The position numbers and the translations under genes were made by a program. DNA of 64,000 nucleotides from Escherichia coli (GTDB taxonomy: Bacteria > Pseudomonadota > Gammaproteobacteria > Enterobacterales > Enterobacteriaceae): NCBI RefSeq assembly GCF_051903065.1, contig NZ_CP178438.1; one strand, 5' to 3'. Shown here piece after piece: positions 7,119 to 58,725 of this stretch. Every line of letters starts with the position of its first letter. Position 1 is the stretch's first letter. Below the pieces are notes generated by a model. That model did no database searches. It was not told the origin of the DNA and worked only from the letters and a program-made list of their open reading frames with translations.

Positions 7119-7379
7119 ATGATACGTAAGTCAGCTACAGGTGTTATTGTTGCGTTAGCCGTAATCTGGGGTGGTGGCACATGGTACACAGGTACGCAAA
7201 TTCAGCCTGGTGTCGAAAAATTTATTAAAGATTTTAACGATGCTAAAAAGAAAGGTGAACATGCCTACGATATGACGTTAAGTTATAAAAACTTTGACAA
7301 AGGCTTTTTTAATTCCCATTTTCAAATGCAAATTTCATTTGATAACGGTGCACCCGATCTCAATATCAAGCCAGGCCAG
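7119..7379 (+). pseudogene. yihF: yihF 5' fragment (DUF945 protein), interrupted by IS1
   Basis: The frame MIRKSATGVIVALAVIWGGGTWYTG... runs directly into the IS1 terminal repeat; the remainder of the frame resumes after the IS. Confidence 0.8.
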
Positions 7380-7394
7380 GGTAATGACTCCAAC

Positions 7395-7898
7395 TTATTG
7401 ATAGTGTTTTATGTTCAGATAATGCCCGATGACTTTGTCATGCAGCTCCACCGATTTTGAGAACGACAGCGACTTCCGTCCCAGCCGTGCCAGGTGCTGC
7501 CTCAGATTCAGGTTATGCCGCTCAATTCGCTGCGTATATCGCTTGCTGATTACGTGCAGCTTTCCCTTCAGGCGGGATTCATACAGCGGCCAGCCATCCG
7601 TCATCCATATCACCACGTCAAAGGGTGACAGCAGGCTCATAAGACGCCCCAGCGTCGCCATAGTGCGTTCACCGAATACGTGCGCAACAACCGTCTTCCG
7701 GAGCCTGTCATACGCGTAAAACAGCCAGCGCTGGCGCGATTTAGCCCCGACATAGCCCCACTGTTCGTCCATTTCCGCGCAGACGATGACGTCACTGCCC
7801 GGCTGTATGCGCGAGGTTACCGACTGCGGCCTGAGTTTTTTAAGTGACGTAAAATCGTGTTGAGGCCAACGCCCATAATGCGGGCTGTTGCCCGGCAT
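7395..7898 (-). CDS. insB: IS1 InsB (made as an InsAB' fusion by frameshift)
   Basis: 167-aa ORF overlapping insA in the -1 frame, as is typical for IS1. Confidence 0.9.
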
Positions 7899-8092
7899 CC
7901 AACGCCATTCATGGCCATATCAATGATTTTCTGGTGCGTACCGGGTTGAGAAGCGGTGTAAGTGAACTGCAGTTGCCATGTTTTACGGCAGTGAGAGCAG
8001 AGATAGCGCTGATGTCCGGCGGTGCTTTTGCCGTTACGCACCACCCCGTCAGTAGCTGAACAGGAGGGACAGCTGATAGAAACAGAAGCCAC
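7817..8092 (-). CDS. insA: IS1 InsA
   Basis: 91-aa protein [23 protein letters not shown]... with a zinc-finger-like N-terminus. Confidence 0.9.
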
Positions 8093-8147
8093 TGGAGCAC
8101 CTCAAAAACACCATCATACACTAAATCAGTAAGTTGGCAGCATCACC

Positions 8148-13449: not shown

Positions 13450-13596
13450 GATTCGCCTGAACATGCCCTTTTTTCGTAAGTAAGCAACATAAGCTGTCAC
13501 GTTTTGTGATGGCTATTAGAAATTCCTATGCAACAACTGAAAAAAAATTACAAAAAGTGCTTTCTGAACTGAACAAAAAAGAGTAAAGTTAGTCGC

Positions 13597-13705
13597 GTAG
13601 GGTACAGAGGTAAGATGTTCTATCTTTCAGACCTTTTACTTCACGTAATCGGATTTGGCTGAATATTTTAGCCGCCCCAGTCAGTAATGACTGGGGCGTT
13701 TTTTA
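13597..13705 (+). ncRNA. spf: Spot 42 small RNA
   Basis: Sequence gtagggtacagaggtaagatgttctatctttcagacc...gccccagtcagtaatgactggggcgtttttta matches Spot 42; canonical position between polA and engB. Confidence 0.9.
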
Positions 13706-14733: not shown

Positions 14734-14978
14734 ATAGAGCGAGGACGCTAACAGGAACAATGACTCAGGATGAGGGTCAGGAGCGCCAGGAGGCGAAGAC
14801 AGAGGATTGTCAGGAAGACAAACGTCCGGAGACGTAATTAAACGGAAATGGAATCAACACGGATTGTTCCGGCTAATGGAAAAACAGGGTGTGTTGGCGG
14901 CCTGCAAGGATTGTAAGACCCGTTAAGGGTTATGAGTCAGGAAAAAAGGCGACAGAGTAATCTGTCGCCTTTTTTCTT
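14734..14978 (+). ncRNA. csrC: CsrC small RNA (CsrA-sequestering)
   Basis: About 245 nt with many GGA motifs (caggatgagg, caggagcg, caggaagac, ccggagacg, tcaggaaa...) ending in the terminator ggcgacagagtaatctgtcgccttttttc; canonical position between engB and yihI. Confidence 0.85.
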
Positions 14979-15044
14979 TGCTTGCTTTCTGTTAGATTCC
15001 GCCGCAAATCTATACTGAATAAAACGGCTAAAAGACGAACCATT

Positions 15045-24701: not shown

Positions 24702-24844
24702 GTGTTTTATGGTGACAATAAATAACGCAAGAAAGATTCTACAACGTGTCGACACTCTTCCTCTTTATTTACATGCTTATGCCTTTCATGGTGATGCTGC
24801 CAACTTACTGATTTAGTGTATGATGGTGTTTTTGAGGTGCTCCA

Positions 24845-25120
24845 GTGGCTTCTGTTTCTATCAGCTGTCCCTCCTGTTCAGCTACTGACGGGGTGGTGCG
24901 TAACGGCAAAAGCACCGCCGGACATCAGCGCTATCTCTGCTCTCACTGCCGTAAAACATGGCAACTGCAGTTCACTTACACCGCTTCTCAACCCGGTACG
25001 CACCAGAAAATCATTGATATGGCCATGAATGGCGTTGGATGCCGGGCAACAGCCCGCATTATGGGCGTTGGCCTCAACACGATTTTACGTCACTTAAAAA
25101 ACTCAGGCCGCAGTCGGTAA
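24845..25120 (+). CDS. insA: IS1 InsA
   Basis: Protein identical to the other IS1 copy; GTG start. Confidence 0.9.
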
Positions 25121-25542
25121 CCTCGCGCATACAGCCGGGCAGTGACGTCATCGTCTGCGCGGAAATGGACGAACAGTGGGGCTATGTCGGGGCTAAATCG
25201 CGCCAGCGCTGGCTGTTTTACGCGTATGACAGGCTCCGGAAGACGGTTGTTGCGCACGTATTCGGTGAACGCACTATGGCGACGCTGGGGCGTCTTATGA
25301 GCCTGCTGTCACCCTTTGACGTGGTGATATGGATGACGGATGGCTGGCCGCTGTATGAATCCCGCCTGAAGGGAAAGCTGCACGTAATCAGCAAGCGATA
25401 TACGCAGCGAATTGAGCGGCATAACCTGAATCTGAGGCAGCACCTGGCACGGCTGGGACGGAAGTCGCTGTCGTTCTCAAAATCGGTGGAGCTGCATGAC
25501 AAAGTCATCGGGCATTATCTGAACATAAAACACTATCAATAA
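25039..25542 (+). CDS. insB: IS1 InsB
   Basis: Protein identical to the other IS1 copy. Confidence 0.9.
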
Positions 25543-25556
25543 GTTGGAGTCATTAC

Positions 25557-25988
25557 CCAGATCGTATAGGTCAAAAAAGTCTGTATTTGTCGGGAGCAGG
25601 ATTTTGTGTCCTGTTCGCGTTTCCTTTCTTCTTATTACTGGATAGCAAAAGTACGCTCATCATCTGGTGCAGTATGATCCTCGGCTACAACTTAGGTCCG
25701 ACGATGATGTTTGCCGTGCAGCCAACACTTTTCACCCGCATGTTCGGTACCAAAGTACGATATACCGGCCTTTCTTTTGCTTATCAATTTTCCGCGATTC
25801 TTGGCGGACTAAGCCCCCTTATCGCCTCAAGTTTGCTGGCGCTAGGGGGAGGAAAACCGTGGTATGTCGCTCTGTTTTTATTTGCTGTCTCAGTTCTTTC
25901 CTTTGTTTGCGTCTGGCTGATTGAGCCGACCGATGAACAAGAAACCGCTTCTTACCGCTACATCAGGGAACAATCTCATGAAAACTGA
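25557..25988 (+). pseudogene. 3' fragment of an MFS-type transporter gene, 5'-truncated at the IS1 junction
   Basis: The reading frame is open from the first base after IS1 and encodes only the last ~4 hydrophobic helices (…FCVLFAFPFFLLLD…LGGLSPLIASSLLALGG…YVALFLFAVSVLSFVCVWLIEP…); there is no upstream start or N-terminal half. Confidence 0.6.
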
Positions 25989-36291: not shown

Positions 36292-39200
36292 TTACACCTT
36301 TTCCACATTCACAAGGAAGGACTTAAACTCCGGCGTCTGCGTGTTTGCATCACCAACGAATGGCGTTAACGTATTGGCAATAAAGCCTTTTTTAGCTACG
36401 CCTTCATAGCCCCAGTGAATCGGAATACCGATGGTATCGATATCTTTGCCGTTCGCTTTCAGCGTGCGAATACGTTTGGTCACCACCGCTTTGGCTTTGA
36501 TATAGCCACGGTTGGAGGAGACTTTCACGGTATCGCCCTGGGCAATGCCAAGTTTATTCGCCAGCGACTCCCCGATTTCCACAAACTGCTCTGGTTGCAA
36601 AATCGCGTTCAACAGCGCGTGTTTGGTCCAGTAGTGGAAGTGCTCGGTCAGACGATAGGTGGTTCCGACATACGGGAACTTATCGGCTTTACCCAATGCT
36701 TCGGCGTCGTCTTTAAAGATTCGCGCAGCCGGGTTCGAGATAACGTTTGGATGCAGCGGGTTAGTTCCCAGCGGCGTTTCAAACGGCTCGTAGTGTTCCG
36801 GGAACGGACCTTCCGCCATCTTATCGAGGGCAAACAGACGCCCCATGCCTTCCTGCTGCATGATAAACGGCCCGACGCCGCTACCCGGAGGCGCTGCGCT
36901 GTAGTCCGGAATATCCCAGCCGGTCCACTTAGTGCCGTCCCATTTCAGCAACTGACGCTTCGGATCCCACGGGTTACCCTGCGGATCTGCGGAGGCGCGG
37001 TTATACAGAATGCGGCGGTTAAGCGGCCATGCCCATGCCCAGCCCAGCGTGTTACCGAGGCCAGACGGATCGGCGTTATCACGGCGTGCCATCTGGTTGC
37101 CTTCCGGCGTCCAGCTACCGGCGAAAATCCAGCAGCCACAGGAGGTTGTACCGTCATCGCGCAATTGGGCGAACGAGCTAAGTTGTTGGCCTTTCTTGAC
37201 GATAACCGCACCGGTTGCCGGATCGGTAATATCGGCCAGCGCCTTACCGTTGCTCTCCATCGCTACTTCTTCCGACTTCGGCTCATGCGGAATGGCGTAG
37301 TTCCAGGTCATGTTCAGCACTTGGTCCGGGTTCGCGCCACCCTGTTCGGCATACATCTTGCGCAAGCGCAGGAAGATACCGGAGAGGATCTCGCCGTCAG
37401 TCAGCGCAATCCCCGGGGCGTCCGCACCTTTCCAGTGCCACTGTAACCAGCGACCTGAGTTAACGATAGAACCGTTCTCTTCCGCGAAGCAGGTCGATGG
37501 CAGACGGAACACTTCGGTCTGGATCTTCGACGAGTCAACTTCGTTCAGCTCACCGTGGTTCTGCCAGAAGTTAGAGGTTTCAGTGTTCAGCGGGTCGATG
37601 GTGACGAGGAACTTCAGTTTCGACAGACAACCGATCACTTTGTTTTTGTTCGGGAATGAGGCAACAGGGTTAAAGCCCTGGCAGATATAGCCATTGACCT
37701 TGCCCTCTTTCATCATCTCGAAGTATTGCAGGACGTCGTAGCCTTTATCCCACTTCGGCAACCAGTCAAAGCCCCAGCTATTTTCCGCCGTCGCTTTATC
37801 ACCAAAGAAGGCCTTCATCATGGAGACGAAGAATTTCGGGTAGTTGCCCCAGTAGTTTACCTGGCCTTCCAGCAGCGGTTTTGGCGTGTTGGCGGTAAGG
37901 TAGGTTTGCAGATCGGTCTGCTTCTCGCTTGGCAGCGTCATGTAACCTGGCAGGCTCTGCGACAGCAGCCCCAGGTCCGTCAGCCCCTGAATATTGGAGT
38001 GACCGCGCAGGGCGTTAACGCCGCCGCCAGCCATCCCCATGTTACCGAGCAGCAGCTGGATCATCGCCATCGTACGAATGTTTTGCGCACCAACGGAGTG
38101 TTGCGTCCAGCCGAGGGCATACAGGAACGAGGCAGTTTTATCGTGAGCACTGGTTTCTGCGATGTATTCGCAGACTTTCAGGAACGCGTCTTTTGGCGTA
38201 CCACAGATGTTTTCAACCACATCTGGCGTGTAGCGGGAAACGTGCTGTTTCAGCAAGTTCCACACGCAGCGCGGATGTTGCAGCGTGGTATCGCGTTTGG
38301 CGAAGCCGTTTTCGTCCAGTTCGTAAGTCCAGGAGGATTTATCGTACTTGCGTTTTTCCGCGTCGTAGCCGGTGAACAGGCCATCTTCAAAGCCGTAATC
38401 CTCACGCACGATCAGGCTGGCGTTGGTATAGGCTTCGGTGTATTCGCGGTTGAATTTTTCATTGTTCAGCAGGTACAGCAATACGCCTGACAGGAAAGCA
38501 ATGTCAGTACCGGAACGAATAGGGGCATAGTAGTCAGCCACCGCAGCCGTACGCGTAAAGCGAGGATCGATCACAATCAGCTTCGCGCCATTGTGAATTT
38601 TGGCTTCCATCGCCCAGCGGAACCCGACCGGGTGAGCTTCAGCGGCGTTACCGCCCATCACCACGACGAGGTTGGCGTTCTTGATGTCGACCCAGTGGTT
38701 GGTCATCGCACCGCGACCAAATGTTGGAGCAAGACTTGCTACCGTTGGTCCGTGTCAGACACGCGCCTGGTTGTCGACCGCGAGCATACCCAGCGCGCGG
38801 GAGAATTTTTGCGTTAAATAGCCGGTTTCGTTACTCGACGCGGAAGCACACAGCATCCCGGTGGAGAGCCAGCGGTTAACAGTCACGCCTTCGGCGTTTT
38901 GCGCAATGTAGTTAGCATCGCGGTCTTCTTTCATCAGTTTGGCGATGCGATCAAACGCCTCTTCCCAACTGATTTGCTGCCATTTATCAGAACCTGGCGC
39001 ACGGTATTCCGGAAACTTCAGACGGCTTTCGGAGTGGATGAAATCCACCAGGCCAGCGCCTTTCGGACAAAGTGCACCGCGGTTGACCGGGTGATCCGGA
39101 TCGCCTTCGATATGGAAGATAGATGCTTTGGCGTTTTTTGCTCCGTCACCGAGGCTGTACATCAACAGCCCACAGCCTACGGAACAATAGGTGCAGGTAT

Positions 39201-46820: not shown

Positions 46821-48215
46821 ATGAAAAAATCGACATTATCTTTAGCCATCGGTTTATTATTGGCATGTAGTACCGGTATGGCAAAAACACAGCATTTAAC
46901 GCTGGAACAACGCATGGCATTGCTGGAAGAACGCCTGGAAGCGGCAGAAATGCGGGCGGCAAAAGCAGAGAGCCAGGTTAAACAGCTGCAGACACAACAA
47001 GCCGCTGAGATCCGCGAAATTAAGGCTGCCCAGGGCAATACGCCGGTAAATGGACAGACAACAGCGGAATCTGCAAAGAAAAATGCCACCTCACCTAATC
47101 TTTTGCTTTCAGGTTATGGCGATTTAAAAATCTACGGCGACGTAGAATTTAATATGGATGCGGAAAGTAATCATGGCCTGCTGGCAATGACCAACGCTGA
47201 TGTGAATAGCGATTCCACCAATGAACAGTGGAATCTCAATGGTCGTATTCTGTTAGGTTTTGATGGTATGCGAAAACTGGATAATGGCTATTTCGCCGGG
47301 TTCTCCGCACAACCGCTGGGGGATATGCACGGTTCAGTAAATATCGATGATGCGGTATTCTTCTTTGGCAAAGAAAACGACTGGAAGGTCAAAGTAGGCC
47401 GTTTTGAAGCCTACGATATGTTCCCGCTGAATCAGGATACCTTTGTTGAACATTCCGGTAATACTGCGAACGATCTTTATGACGATGGCAGCGGTTATAT
47501 CTATATGATGAAAGAGGGCCGCGGGCGCTCTAACGCTGGCGGTAATTTCCTCGTCAGCAAACAACTCGATAACTGGTATTTTGAATTAAACACGTTACTT
47601 GAAGACGGAACATCTTTATATAATGACGGTAATTATCATGGACGCGATATGGAGCAGCAGAAAAATGTTGCTTATCTGCGCCCAGTAATTGCCTGGTCGC
47701 CGACGGAAGAATTCACCGTTTCCGCAGCGATGGAAGCGAACGTGGTAAATAATGCTTATGGTTATACCGATAGCAAGGGTAATTTTGTCGATCAGTCCGA
47801 TCGTACCGGCTATGGTATGAGCATGACCTGGAATGGCTTGAAAACGGATCCGGACAATGGCATTGTGGTTAATCTTAATACCGCCTATTTAGATGCTAAT
47901 AATGAGAAAGATTTCACTGCCGGGATTAACGCGCTGTGGAAACGTTTCGAGCTCGGTTATATCTACGCGCACAATAAGATTGATGAATTCAGCGGTGTAG
48001 TTTGTGATAACGACTGCTGGATTGATGATGAAGGGACGTACACCATTCACACCATTCATGCGTCTTATCAGTTCGCTAATGTGATGGATATGGAGAACTT
48101 TAATATTTACCTCGGGACGTATTACTCCATTCTGGATAGCGACGGCGATAAAAAACACGGTGATGATACTGATGACCGTTACGGCGCACGCGTTCGCTTT
48201 AAATACTTCTTCTGA
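46821..48215 (+). CDS. Putative outer-membrane beta-barrel porin with an N-terminal coiled coil (carbohydrate-porin-like)
   Basis: Signal peptide MKKSTLSLAIGLLLACSTGMA, then a heptad-like stretch (LTLEQRMALLEERLEAAEMRAAKAESQVKQLQTQQAAEIREIK), then alternating aromatic/polar beta-strand patterns ending in the OMP-type C-terminus RFKYFF; AT-rich upstream region. Confidence 0.6.
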   Translation: MKKSTLSLAIGLLLACSTGMAKTQHLTLEQRMALLEERLEAAEMRAAKAESQVKQLQTQQAAEIREIKAAQGNTPVNGQTTAESAKKNATSPNLLLSGYGDLKIYGDVEFNMDAESNHGLLAMTNADVNSDSTNEQWNLNGRILLGFDGMRKLDNGYFAGFSAQPLGDMHGSVNIDDAVFFFGKENDWKVKVGRFEAYDMFPLNQDTFVEHSGNTANDLYDDGSGYIYMMKEGRGRSNAGGNFLVSKQLDNWYFELNTLLEDGTSLYNDGNYHGRDMEQQKNVAYLRPVIAWSPTEEFTVSAAMEANVVNNAYGYTDSKGNFVDQSDRTGYGMSMTWNGLKTDPDNGIVVNLNTAYLDANNEKDFTAGINALWKRFELGYIYAHNKIDEFSGVVCDNDCWIDDEGTYTIHTIHASYQFANVMDMENFNIYLGTYYSILDSDGDKKHGDDTDDRYGARVRFKYFF

Positions 48216-48255: not shown

Positions 48256-48570
48256 TTAAGGCAGGTAAAACACTTCTTGCAGCTCGCTACTCACCGGGCT
48301 GTTATCCGGGTTAGCGGGCATAACGTCGGTCATATATTTCCACCAACGTTGGCAGATTTCAGTGCTGGCTACCGCATTCCACCGTTCTTCAGATTCAATC
48401 TCTACCATGGCAAACAGCAGATTACGCGCTTTGTCGAGGTAAATGGCGTAGTTATGCGCACCGTGAGATTTCAACACTGCTTCCAGTTCCGGCCAGATGG
48501 GGTTATGCCGACGCTGATACTCTTCGTGGGCGTCGGGGTTAACCTGCATGACAAAGGCTTTGCGGATCAT
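48256..48570 (-). CDS. rhaM: L-rhamnose mutarotase
   Basis: 104-aa [37 protein letters not shown]... Confidence 0.92.
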
Positions 48571-48579
48571 GTATGCTCC

Positions 48580-49404
48580 TTACAGCGCCAGCGCACTGGC
48601 TAGTGGTGTAACGCCGAAGCGCTTGCCGAGCGCTATCAACTCTTCACGGCTGATGGTCTGTTTCATGCCGCCCATCGAATACACCTTCACTAACACTTCC
48701 GCTGATTTTTCTGCGGTGTCGATTAAACCGAATGTTTCATCCAGCGTCGGTCCGGAACCGAACACACCGTGGAAGGGCCACAACACCAGCGAATGTTTTT
48801 GCATCTCGTGGGCAGTTGCCTGGCCGATTTCGTCCGTGCCGGGCACCATCCACGGCAGAATGCCAACGCCATCCGGGAATACCACCAGACACTCGGTGCT
48901 GCCTTCCCACAGTTGGCGAGTGAAGACCGCGGTGTCGTTTTCCAGTACATAGGTGAGGGCGATCAGGTTGGTGGCATGGCAGTGCATGATCACCCGATCT
49001 TTACCGTTGGTGGCTTTAATACGCTCGCAGTGGGAGAGAAAGTGAGCCGGAAGTTCAGACGTTGGAACGGCTTCGTTGGTTAACCCCCAGAGAATGTGGT
49101 AACCCGCGCCGTCGCTGTCGACTTTTACGACGCCTAAGTTAGCTGCAGGATCAAGCTGGACGTTACGGAAGAATTTGCCGGAGCCGGTGACAATAAACGG
49201 CGTATTTGCCAGTAAAGGCATGGGCTGGCTGAGCGGAATATAGCGCGGTTGTGGGTGGAAGTTGTCGTGATACGGTGCGATATCGGCGTCATCCAGGCGC
49301 AGCGTCAGGTTGCCGCCGTTGCGCTCATCCCAGCCTTTCAGCCAGGCGTCGGTGGTGGCTTTGATCATTCCCTGGACAAACCAGGACTGGGTAATGTTTT
49401 GCAT
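48580..49404 (-). CDS. rhaD: Rhamnulose-1-phosphate aldolase
   Basis: Start at [25 protein letters not shown] (274 aa); the ORF-track extension upstream runs into the REP array and is not coding. Confidence 0.92.
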
Positions 49405-49431
49405 GTTCTGTGTTCCTGTAAATTCGGTGTT

Positions 49432-49847
49432 GTCGGATGCACGACCCGTAGGCCGGATAAGGCGCTCGTGCCGCATCCGGCAATCAATGCCTGATGCGAC
49501 GCTGTCGCGTCTTATCAGGCCTACAACTATTGCCGACCTGTAGGCCGGATAAGGCACTTGTGCCGCATCCGGCAATCAATGCCTGATGCGACGCTGTCGC
49601 GTCTTATCAGACCTACAACTATTGCCGACCTGTAGGCCGGATAAGGCGCTCGTGCCGCATCCGGCAATCAATGCCTGATGCGACGCTGTCGCGTCTTATC
49701 AGGCCTACAACTATTGCCGACCTGTAGGCCGGATAAGGCACTTGTGCCGCATCCGGCAATCAATGCCTGATGCGATGTCGCGTCTTATCAGGCCTACAAC
49801 TGTTGCCGACCTGTAGGCCGGATAAGGCACTTGTGCCGCATCCGGCA
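49432..49847. repeat. BIME: tandem array of about 4.5 REP-pair units (~91 bp each) between rhaD and rhaA
   Basis: The unit gcctgatgcgacgctgtcgcgtcttatcaggcctacaactattgccgacctgtaggccggataaggc[gctcg or acttg]tgccgcatccggcaatcaat repeats with minor variants. Confidence 0.88.
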
Positions 49848-49851
49848 GTGT

Positions 49852-52864
<3,013 letters not shown>

Positions 52865-53701
52865 ATGACCGTATTACATAGTGTGGATTTTTTTCCGTCT
52901 GGTAACGCGTCCGTGGCGATAGAACCCCGGCTCCCGCAGGCGGATTTTCCTGAACATCATCATGATTTTCATGAAATTGTGATTGTCGAACATGGCACGG
53001 GTATTCATGTGTTTAATGGGCAGCCCTATACCATCACCGGTGGGACGGTCTGTTTTGTGCGCGACCATGATCGGCATCTGTATGAACATACCGATAATCT
53101 GTGTCTGACCAATGTGCTATATCGCTCGCCGGATCGATTTCAGTTTCTCGCCGGGCTGAATCAGTTGCTGCCACAAGAGCTGGATGGGCAGTATCCGTCT
53201 CACTGGCGCGTTAACCACAGCGTATTGCAGCAGGTGCGACAGCTGGTTGCACAGATGGAACAGCAGGAAGGGGAAAATGATTTACCCTCGACCGCCAGTC
53301 GCGAGATCTTGTTTATGCAATTACTACTCTTGCTGCGTAAAAGCAGTTTGCAGGAGAACCTGGAAAACAGCGCATCACGTCTCAACTTGCTTCTGGCCTG
53401 GCTGGAGGACCATTTTGCCGATGAGGTGAATTGGGATACCGTGGCGGATCAATTTTCTCTTTCACTGCGTACGCTACATCGGCAGCTTAAGCAGCAAACG
53501 GGACTGACGCCTCAGCGTTACCTGAACCGCCTGCGACTGATGAAAGCCCGACATCTGCTACGCCACAGCGAGGCCAGCGTTACTGACATCGCCTATCGCT
53601 GTGGATTCAGCGACAGTAACCACTTTTCGACGCTTTTTCGCCGAGAGTTTAACTGGTCACCGCGTGATATTCGTCAGGGACGGGATGGTTTTCTGCAATA
53701 A
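52865..53701 (+). CDS. rhaS: AraC-family activator RhaS
   Basis: 278-aa [47 protein letters not shown]... Confidence 0.93.
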
Positions 53702-58629: not shown

Positions 58630-58725
58630 CGGAGTGTAGGCCTGATAAGACGCTATCAGCGTCGCATCAGGCATCCTGCTCAAATGCCGGATGCGGCGTA
58701 AACGCCTTATCCTGCCTACAAATGC
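58630..58725. repeat. REP elements
   Basis: gcctgataagacgctatcagcgtcgcatcaggc ... gccggatgcggcgtaaacgccttatcctgcctac. Confidence 0.6.

Follow-up and report, generated by a model that had tools for sequence, protein, structure and literature searches.

In the Escherichia coli strain studied here, the rhamnose genes rhaA and rhaD are separated by a stretch of regularly repeated palindromes, which raises the question of what these repeats are, how they came to lie between two genes of one operon and whether they influence its expression. We analyzed them within a window of 64,000 nucleotides (contig NZ_CP178438.1 of assembly GCF_051903065.1), the term window standing here for the whole stretch of DNA under analysis. 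A preliminary description had placed an array of REP-pair units (BIME) between rhaA and rhaD within the rha operon, and this was confirmed by tandem-repeat and REP-by-REP scans together with NCBIfam matches. The best explanation of the array, to which we assign a probability close to nine in ten, is that it is a BIME-2, the counterpart of REP299a-i of E. coli K-12, with the origin, the gyrase interaction and the RNA-level effects that are proposed below.

Anatomy of the array and its place in the rha operon

Tandem Repeats Finder identified one tandem array, at 49442-49847, with a period of 92, 4.4 copies and 95% matches, the consensus alignment containing no indels and reaching a score of 742; the tandem-repeat search yielded no second array of such kind in the 64-kb window. 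In a repeat search, the start-to-start spacings were 92, 92, and 89, the fourth unit being shorter because its Z2 REP carries a 3-nt deletion. The unit, previously given as ~91 bp, is therefore one of 92 bp with a fourth copy of 89 bp. The array is beyond chance, since a degenerate REP pattern was matched three times against 0.00 expected (100 shuffles) and the folding z-scores of the region against dinucleotide shuffles were -12.0 and -9.2 for the two strands.

REPs were called by an exhaustive position-by-position scan with Y, Z1, and Z2 consensus sequences, which were validated on the K-12 array REP325. Scanned likewise, REP325 resolved into 12 alternating Z2/Y REPs, most of them with at most one mismatch. 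Because REP325 is a published array of Y and Z2 REPs, defined as Y-l-Z2 units (Qian et al., 2015; PMC4550694), its recovery validates the Y and Z2 consensus sequences, as do the matches of the rha array to Rfam RF02564. The features of the rha locus are listed below, with the evidence for each in brackets.

48256-48570, minus strand: rhaM (NCBIfam equivalog)
48580-49404, minus strand: rhaD, rhamnulose-1-phosphate aldolase (NCBIfam NF002963, 476 bits, residues 1-273 of 274)
49405-49447, minus strand: unique rhaD leader, 43 nt from the last REP to the rhaD ATG (sequence)
49448-49847, no strand assigned: probable BIME-2 array of nine REPs, Y-Z2-Y-Z2-Y-Z2-Y-Z2-Y, period 92 (Tandem Repeats Finder, REP scan, Rfam RF02564)
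49448-49482, minus strand: Y REP 1, last in the rha mRNA, loop GCTCG (REP scan, folding)
49483-49487, and again 49575-49579, 49667-49671, and 49759-49763, no strand assigned: head-to-head linker ATCAA, 5 nt (REP scan)
49488-49524, plus strand: Z2 REP 1 (REP scan, degenerate pattern, folding)
49525-49539, and again 49617-49631 and 49709-49723, no strand assigned: tail-to-tail linker AACTATTGCCGACCT, 15 nt (REP scan)
49540-49574, minus strand: Y REP 2, loop ACTTG (REP scan, folding)
49580-49616, plus strand: Z2 REP 2, with a G-to-A change (REP scan, degenerate pattern, folding)
49632-49666, minus strand: Y REP 3, loop GCTCG (REP scan, folding)
49672-49708, plus strand: Z2 REP 3 (REP scan, degenerate pattern, folding)
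49724-49758, minus strand: Y REP 4, loop ACTTG (REP scan, folding)
49764-49797, plus strand: Z2 REP 4, with the 3-nt deletion and a weakened predicted hairpin of -13 to -15 kcal/mol (REP scan, folding)
49798-49812, no strand assigned: fourth copy of the tail-to-tail linker, reading AACTGTT... (REP scan)
49813-49847, minus strand: Y REP 5, first in the rha mRNA, loop ACTTG (REP scan)
49848-49851, minus strand: spacer of 4 nt from the rhaA stop to the first REP, ACAC on the mRNA (sequence, allele comparison)
49852-51117, minus strand: rhaA, L-rhamnose isomerase, stop codon TAA at 49854-49852 (ORF list; NCBIfam TIGR01748, 829 bits, full length)
51108-52577, minus strand: rhaB (NCBIfam equivalog)
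52865-53701, divergent: rhaS (ORF list, NCBIfam)

An extent of 49432-49847 had been proposed for the array; its end is exact, but its start lies 10-16 nt too early, as the first REP begins at 49448. The strands of the nine REPs alternate strictly (-,+,-,+,-,+,-,+,-), the linkers between them are short and of constant length (5 nt and 15 nt), and GTAG(G) or its complement CTAC stands at the foot of all nine. Each of the five Y REPs has three to five differences from its 35-nt consensus, most of them in the loop, which reads GCGCTCGTGC or GCACTTGTGC, and the four Z2 REPs show one to four differences from the 37-nt consensus, one of them having CAGACC in place of CAGGCC. The REP-by-REP scan thus recovered both variant positions that had been pointed out earlier (gctcg/acttg and ggcc/gacc). 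It also brought out three that had been missed, namely the deletion in the fourth Z2 REP, an A/G substitution within the 15-nt tail-to-tail linker, and a GACCC/GACCT difference ahead of the first Y. For every one of the nine REPs, a hairpin is predicted on either strand (-13 to -22 kcal/mol; -20.0 kcal/mol for Y REP 5 on the mRNA strand), and adjacent Y+Z2 doublets may alternatively fold into long hairpins with predicted energies of -35 to -47 kcal/mol. The idea that orientation counts because the two strands differ in hairpin stability was considered and discarded, as the differences were at most 0.5 kcal/mol for intact REPs. The array had also been called unusually regular. This does not hold: the BIME-2 array REP325 of K-12 has 96% matches over 5.8 copies against 95% here, which makes the rha array a typical one in this respect, and good conservation among the tandem BIME copies of a locus is described as the rule (PMC3333891).

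The array fills the 447-bp spacer that extends on the minus strand from the rhaA stop to the rhaD start, and the order on the rha mRNA is the rhaA UAA, ACAC, the first REP and its successors down to the last, the 43-nt leader, and the rhaD AUG. Within this leader, an AGGA 9 nt upstream of the rhaD start codon is a probable ribosome-binding site. The 4-nt spacer on the other side of the array (GTGT on the plus strand) was the same in all nine alleles compared. We looked for an internal terminator or promoter that could serve rhaD and rejected both, as there was no intrinsic terminator-like site in the rhaA-rhaD region and the promoter-like sites around the array amounted to a single plus-strand match (48548-48577), one against 1.5 expected and thus at chance level. 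By the established view, rhaBAD(M) forms one transcription unit, with which a spacer that holds neither a terminator nor a better-than-chance promoter is consistent.

Class of the element and its K-12 counterpart

Regularly spaced palindromic repeats have the superficial look of a CRISPR, that is, of short repeats alternating with unique spacers taken from invading DNA, and this look is all that speaks for such a reading. The entire 92-bp period is repeated here, both linkers included, which leaves no unique spacer, and the two repeat types are inverted copies of REP consensus sequences. The neighbors are rhaA and rhaD, not cas genes. The lack of unique spacers refutes a CRISPR, to which we leave practically no probability, and the earlier statement that the array is not one was upheld.

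Two classes of BIME come into question. BIME-1 elements have a z1 partner, occur in single copy and contain a long L linker with an IHF site, while BIME-2 elements combine y and z2 in multiple tandem copies with short linkers, the copies being conserved within a locus and variable in number between strains (PMC3333891). The same source defines BIME-2 by a short S linker that joins the REP to the inverted REP, with s, l or r flanking motifs (PMC3333891). The rha array shares inverted REP pairs and the Y REP with BIME-1 (Y-L-Z1; RIP/RIB, which binds IHF), but its partner REP is the 37-nt Z2, its units stand in tandem and its linkers measure 5 and 15 nt. It has the features of a BIME-2, with Y and Z2 REPs in alternating orientation, tandem conserved copies and a strain-variable number of them. 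An IHF site in the array, as had been suggested, was not borne out, since it is the L linker of BIME-1 that binds IHF, and the IHF consensus WATCAANNNNTTR has no match in 49405-49851. With GTAG/CTAC at the foot of every REP and inverted doublets, the array also has the features of a REPIN and RAYT substrate.

The window holds a second, non-amplified element of BIME-2 type, a lone Z2/Y REP pair with an 11-nt linker at 58639-58716 on the minus strand (Rfam naRNA4, 78.6 bits). Across the window, the IHF consensus is matched just twice, at the ends (TATCAATAAGTTG) of two inverted 769-bp copies at 7379-8147 and 24790-25558, which are 100% complementary and flank 16.6 kb. The ends of these copies resemble those of IS1, and the pair may be a composite-transposon-like arrangement.

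Four units of the array matched Rfam RF02564 (naRNA4) on the plus strand at 64.1-73.3 bits, above the gathering score of 59.5, and the mRNA (minus) strand gave 49.8-50.8 bits, below it. Other Rfam landmarks of the window are the 3' part of 23S rRNA with 5S rRNA (1-2290), Spot 42 (13587-13705), CsrC (14734-14987), and a SECIS element on the minus strand (38702-38760). Taken at face value, the four plus-strand matches (64-73 bits, against ~50 on the mRNA strand) would make the array a cluster of genes for naRNA4-like small RNAs, antisense to rha, that condense the chromosome together with HU. We consider this very improbable. The model is built from units of REP325, another BIME-2 array, so the matches reflect shared REP sequence only and are silent on expression, and the sole promoter-like site facing the array is the chance-level match at 48548-48577. 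The role of REP325 and naRNA4 in nucleoid compaction is itself contested, a 2026 re-examination having reported no measurable compaction by either.

The reading as BIME-2 is reinforced by K-12, in which the corresponding array is catalogued in EcoCyc as REP299a-i, an element of the rhaBAD operon that lies no more than 15 nt from the preceding gene, and is predicted by RAREFAN to be RAYT-associated (bioRxiv 10.1101/2024.07.17.603846). It occupies the same position, separated from the rhaA stop by 4 nt and from the rhaD start by 43 nt, and has nine REPs with the same 92-bp period and linkers, in a spacer of 450 bp versus 447 bp here; the two alleles are ~96% identical over a 1251-bp query across the spacer. 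REP299 differs in the order of its Y loop variants, with GCTCGC at both outer Y REPs, and includes one hybrid Y with a Z-like arm, whereas the allele of the window is distinguished by the deletion in the fourth Z2 and the G-to-A change in the second. A full-text literature search for a paper devoted to the rhaA-rhaD REPs returned passing mentions only. The array is nevertheless already known, as a catalogued K-12 BIME-2 that was included in genome-wide gyrase and REP studies. It is a textbook BIME-2, of little import beyond its correct annotation.

One of these studies bears on the suggestion that the repeats are gyrase sites, for which cleavage at the K-12 equivalent is documented. The K-12 array is listed as 'BIMEs2 ... 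rhaA>-rhaD>' with a length of 401 bp, and the numbers of gyrase cleavage sites within it were four with ciprofloxacin (Cfx), two with rifampicin and ciprofloxacin (RifCfx), one with microcin B17 (Micro), and none with oxolinic acid (Oxo) (Sutormin et al., 2019; PMC6379681, table DS3). Among the REPs, Y is a much more frequent target of gyrase cutting than Z2, and the gyrase signal at BIME-2 does not drop under rifampicin, when transcription is blocked (PMC6379681). At the DNA level, the array would thus be a preferred site of gyrase cleavage and binding that is independent of transcription and mainly involves the Y REPs; this role is experimental in K-12 and may be carried over to the strain studied because the REPs are nearly identical. 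In the araBAD operon of W3110, a BIME-2 of 247 bp lies directly before araD and has three ciprofloxacin and three rifampicin-plus-ciprofloxacin gyrase sites (PMC6379681, table DS3). Like the rha array, it stands in a sugar-catabolic 'BAD' operon just before the D gene, but it is shorter and belongs to a different locus.

Variation among strains and expansion of the array

The number of units had been said to vary between strains, and it does. A 1251-bp query across the spacer was matched in 5,425 of 5,426 complete E. coli genomes. REP counts were obtained from 60 records evenly spaced down the ranking, the span of each match being converted to a number of REPs. This sample was representative, with at least 80% coverage in 63% of the sampled rows versus 63.8% of all records. 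The sampled records were distributed as follows.

11 REPs: 1 of 60 records
9 REPs: 13 of 60 records
7 REPs: 2 of 60 records
5 REPs: 10 of 60 records
3 REPs: 11 of 60 records
1 REP: 14 of 60 records
1 REP with an unrelated ~176-bp repeat: 8 of 60 records
Locus not matched: 1 of 60 records

Spacers of 82, 174, 266, 358, 447/450/460, and 542 bp correspond to 1, 3, 5, 7, 9, and 11 REPs, and in this 60-record sample one REP was found in ~37% of the genomes and nine in ~22%. Representative alleles were fetched and annotated REP by REP. Each begins and ends with a Y REP, their lengths step by one Y+Z2 unit (92 bp), and the GTGT beside rhaA is retained in every allele compared. The allele of the window is rare, with six records at least 99% identical to the 1251-bp query. 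The locus may be used as a size-variable marker among E. coli lineages.

Short-read assembly can get tandem repeats of ~400 bp wrong, so one might ask whether the array is a collapsed or expanded repeat, that is, an artefact of assembly. The complete genome of strain ECNB21-M121 (NZ_CP083585.1) is 100% identical over the 1251 bp, and thousands of finished genomes, K-12 MG1655 included, share the architecture in discrete 92-bp steps. As so many finished genomes fall into discrete size classes, an artefact is excluded for practical purposes. The locus is nonetheless a warning for short-read assemblers, as it is for repeat and CRISPR finders.

The single REP is accompanied by another dispersed repeat in ~14.5% of complete E. 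coli genomes (787 of 5,426). This repeat of ~176 bp is GC-rich and palindromic, takes the place of 17 nt of the rhaD leader and occurs at a median of three places per genome; in the example from WP8-S17-ESBL-05 (locus L006, 626-805), it had no credible Rfam family. The description of the repeats as IS targets agrees with a general property of REPs, but the 60-genome sample contained no IS insertion at the rhaA-rhaD locus.

Several observations bear on how the BIME-2 array reached its present size. Arrays of nine REPs differ in their leaders (447/450 versus 460 bp), those of the window, K-12, and LF82 also differ in the order of their Y loop variants, and one-REP alleles are found in several identity classes. 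Because of these differences, repeated gain and loss of units is the most economical reading of the alleles. We infer that a single Y REP was seeded 4 nt past the rhaA stop and that the locus then gained and lost Y+Z2 units, either by unequal recombination or slippage, or by cleavage and strand transfer through the TnpA-REP/RAYT enzyme. Such an enzyme, the REP-associated Y1 transposase, cleaves and recombines other E. coli BIMEs in vitro (PMC3333891), and plain homologous recombination would account for the pattern of gain and loss equally well. Units 1 and 3 are identical at 91 of 92 positions, compared with 88-89 of 92 for neighboring units, which suggests that the most recent step in the strain studied was a duplication of two units, or 184 bp.

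Possible roles of the array in the rha mRNA

Roles of the array as an mRNA-stabilizing or attenuating structure, which had also been put forward, are plausible by analogy with REP325 (yjdM-yjdN), the source of naRNA1-6 and of RF02564 and the best experimental model for RNA-level effects. Like the rha array, REP325 is a tandem Y/Z2 array in a transcription unit of two genes, starts near the upstream stop codon and is about as regular (96% versus 95%). It differs in its period (100 versus 92), in its linkers of 11 and 17 nt, which are unrelated in sequence, in its 12 REPs versus nine, and in its orientation relative to transcription, which is opposite to that of the rha array. Deletion of REP325 brought the yjdM/yjdN ratio from ~35 to ~1, through stabilization of the upstream message and a partly Rho-dependent attenuation that requires the full-length array, the effect being partly bicyclomycin-sensitive (bioRxiv 10.64898/2026.03.23.713779). 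Genome-wide, tandem gene pairs with REPs show a bias toward upstream expression, with large scatter (bioRxiv 10.64898/2026.03.23.713779).

By this analogy and that of other REPs, the nine hairpins of the rha mRNA could block 3'-to-5' exonucleases and so protect rhaBA, and they might cause some Rho-dependent attenuation ahead of rhaD. REPs within 15 nt of stop codons can impede translation termination, according to a rule relayed in bioRxiv 10.1101/2024.07.17.603846; as the first hairpin lies within this distance of the rhaA stop codon, it could interfere with the termination of RhaA translation. All such effects are probably modest and non-essential, since natural strains carry from one to 11 REPs.

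A stronger proposal would see in the array a selected intra-operon regulator of the REP325 kind, which stabilizes rhaBA, partly terminates transcription before rhaD-rhaM and so sets RhaBA above RhaD, the length of the array acting as a strain-specific dial. The Y/Z2 tandem architecture is that of REP325, whose dual role was shown, REP-containing tandem pairs have the upstream bias mentioned above, and the first REP stands 4 nt past the rhaA stop in every allele compared. The array is also devoid of intrinsic terminator- or promoter-like sites, so that any effect must act through hairpins or Rho. Against this proposal, the array runs opposite to REP325 with respect to transcription and has no conserved length, with one REP in ~37% of genomes and up to 11 in others. 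A lower level of RhaD relative to RhaB is moreover expected to let rhamnulose-1-phosphate accumulate, with the toxicity of a sugar phosphate, which a regulator of this kind would bring about.

The one expression data set that came to light, from strain LF82, which has nine REPs in a rhaD-rhaA spacer of 460 bp (locus L011, 18003-20547), also speaks against it. In two conditions, the RPKM values were 376/39 for rhaA, 452/65 for rhaB, and 554/303 for rhaD (PMC6379400, Table 4), figures from a single study whose library strandedness is unchecked and whose Table 4 labels for the rha columns are ambiguous relative to the text. In neither condition does rhaD fall below rhaA or rhaB, and this absence of depletion behind nine REPs is evidence against strong attenuation and against a polarity like that of REP325. 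In LF82, rhaD appears less regulated than rhaBA and seems partly uncoupled from it, and a plus-strand porin gene that is convergent with rhaM could add antisense reads to the rhaD signal. On balance, we regard a selected regulator of the REP325 kind as possible but doubtful, and prefer the BIME-2 reading with modest RNA-level effects.

More speculative still is the idea that the length of the array, from one to 11 REPs, is a heritable and lineage-specific dial that uncouples rhaD-rhaM from rhaBA, which we think improbable. Differences in mRNA decay or processing could be its mechanism, or the array might stop antisense transcription that arrives from the convergent porin gene. A hint of such uncoupling comes from LF82, in which rhaD, at low expression, exceeds rhaBA 5- to 8-fold although nine REPs are present. 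Were the idea true, array-size classes would differ measurably in their handling of rhamnose and of toxic rhamnulose-1-phosphate. The natural allelic series of 1, 3, 5, 7, 9, and 11 REPs within one inducible operon could offer clean conditions for testing what REP arrays do at the RNA level, a matter still debated. The ORF convergent with rhaM, of 464 aa and located at 46821-48215 on the plus strand, had no NCBIfam match, and the RefSeq label at the same position is 'carbohydrate porin' in both FDAARGOS_536 and LF82.
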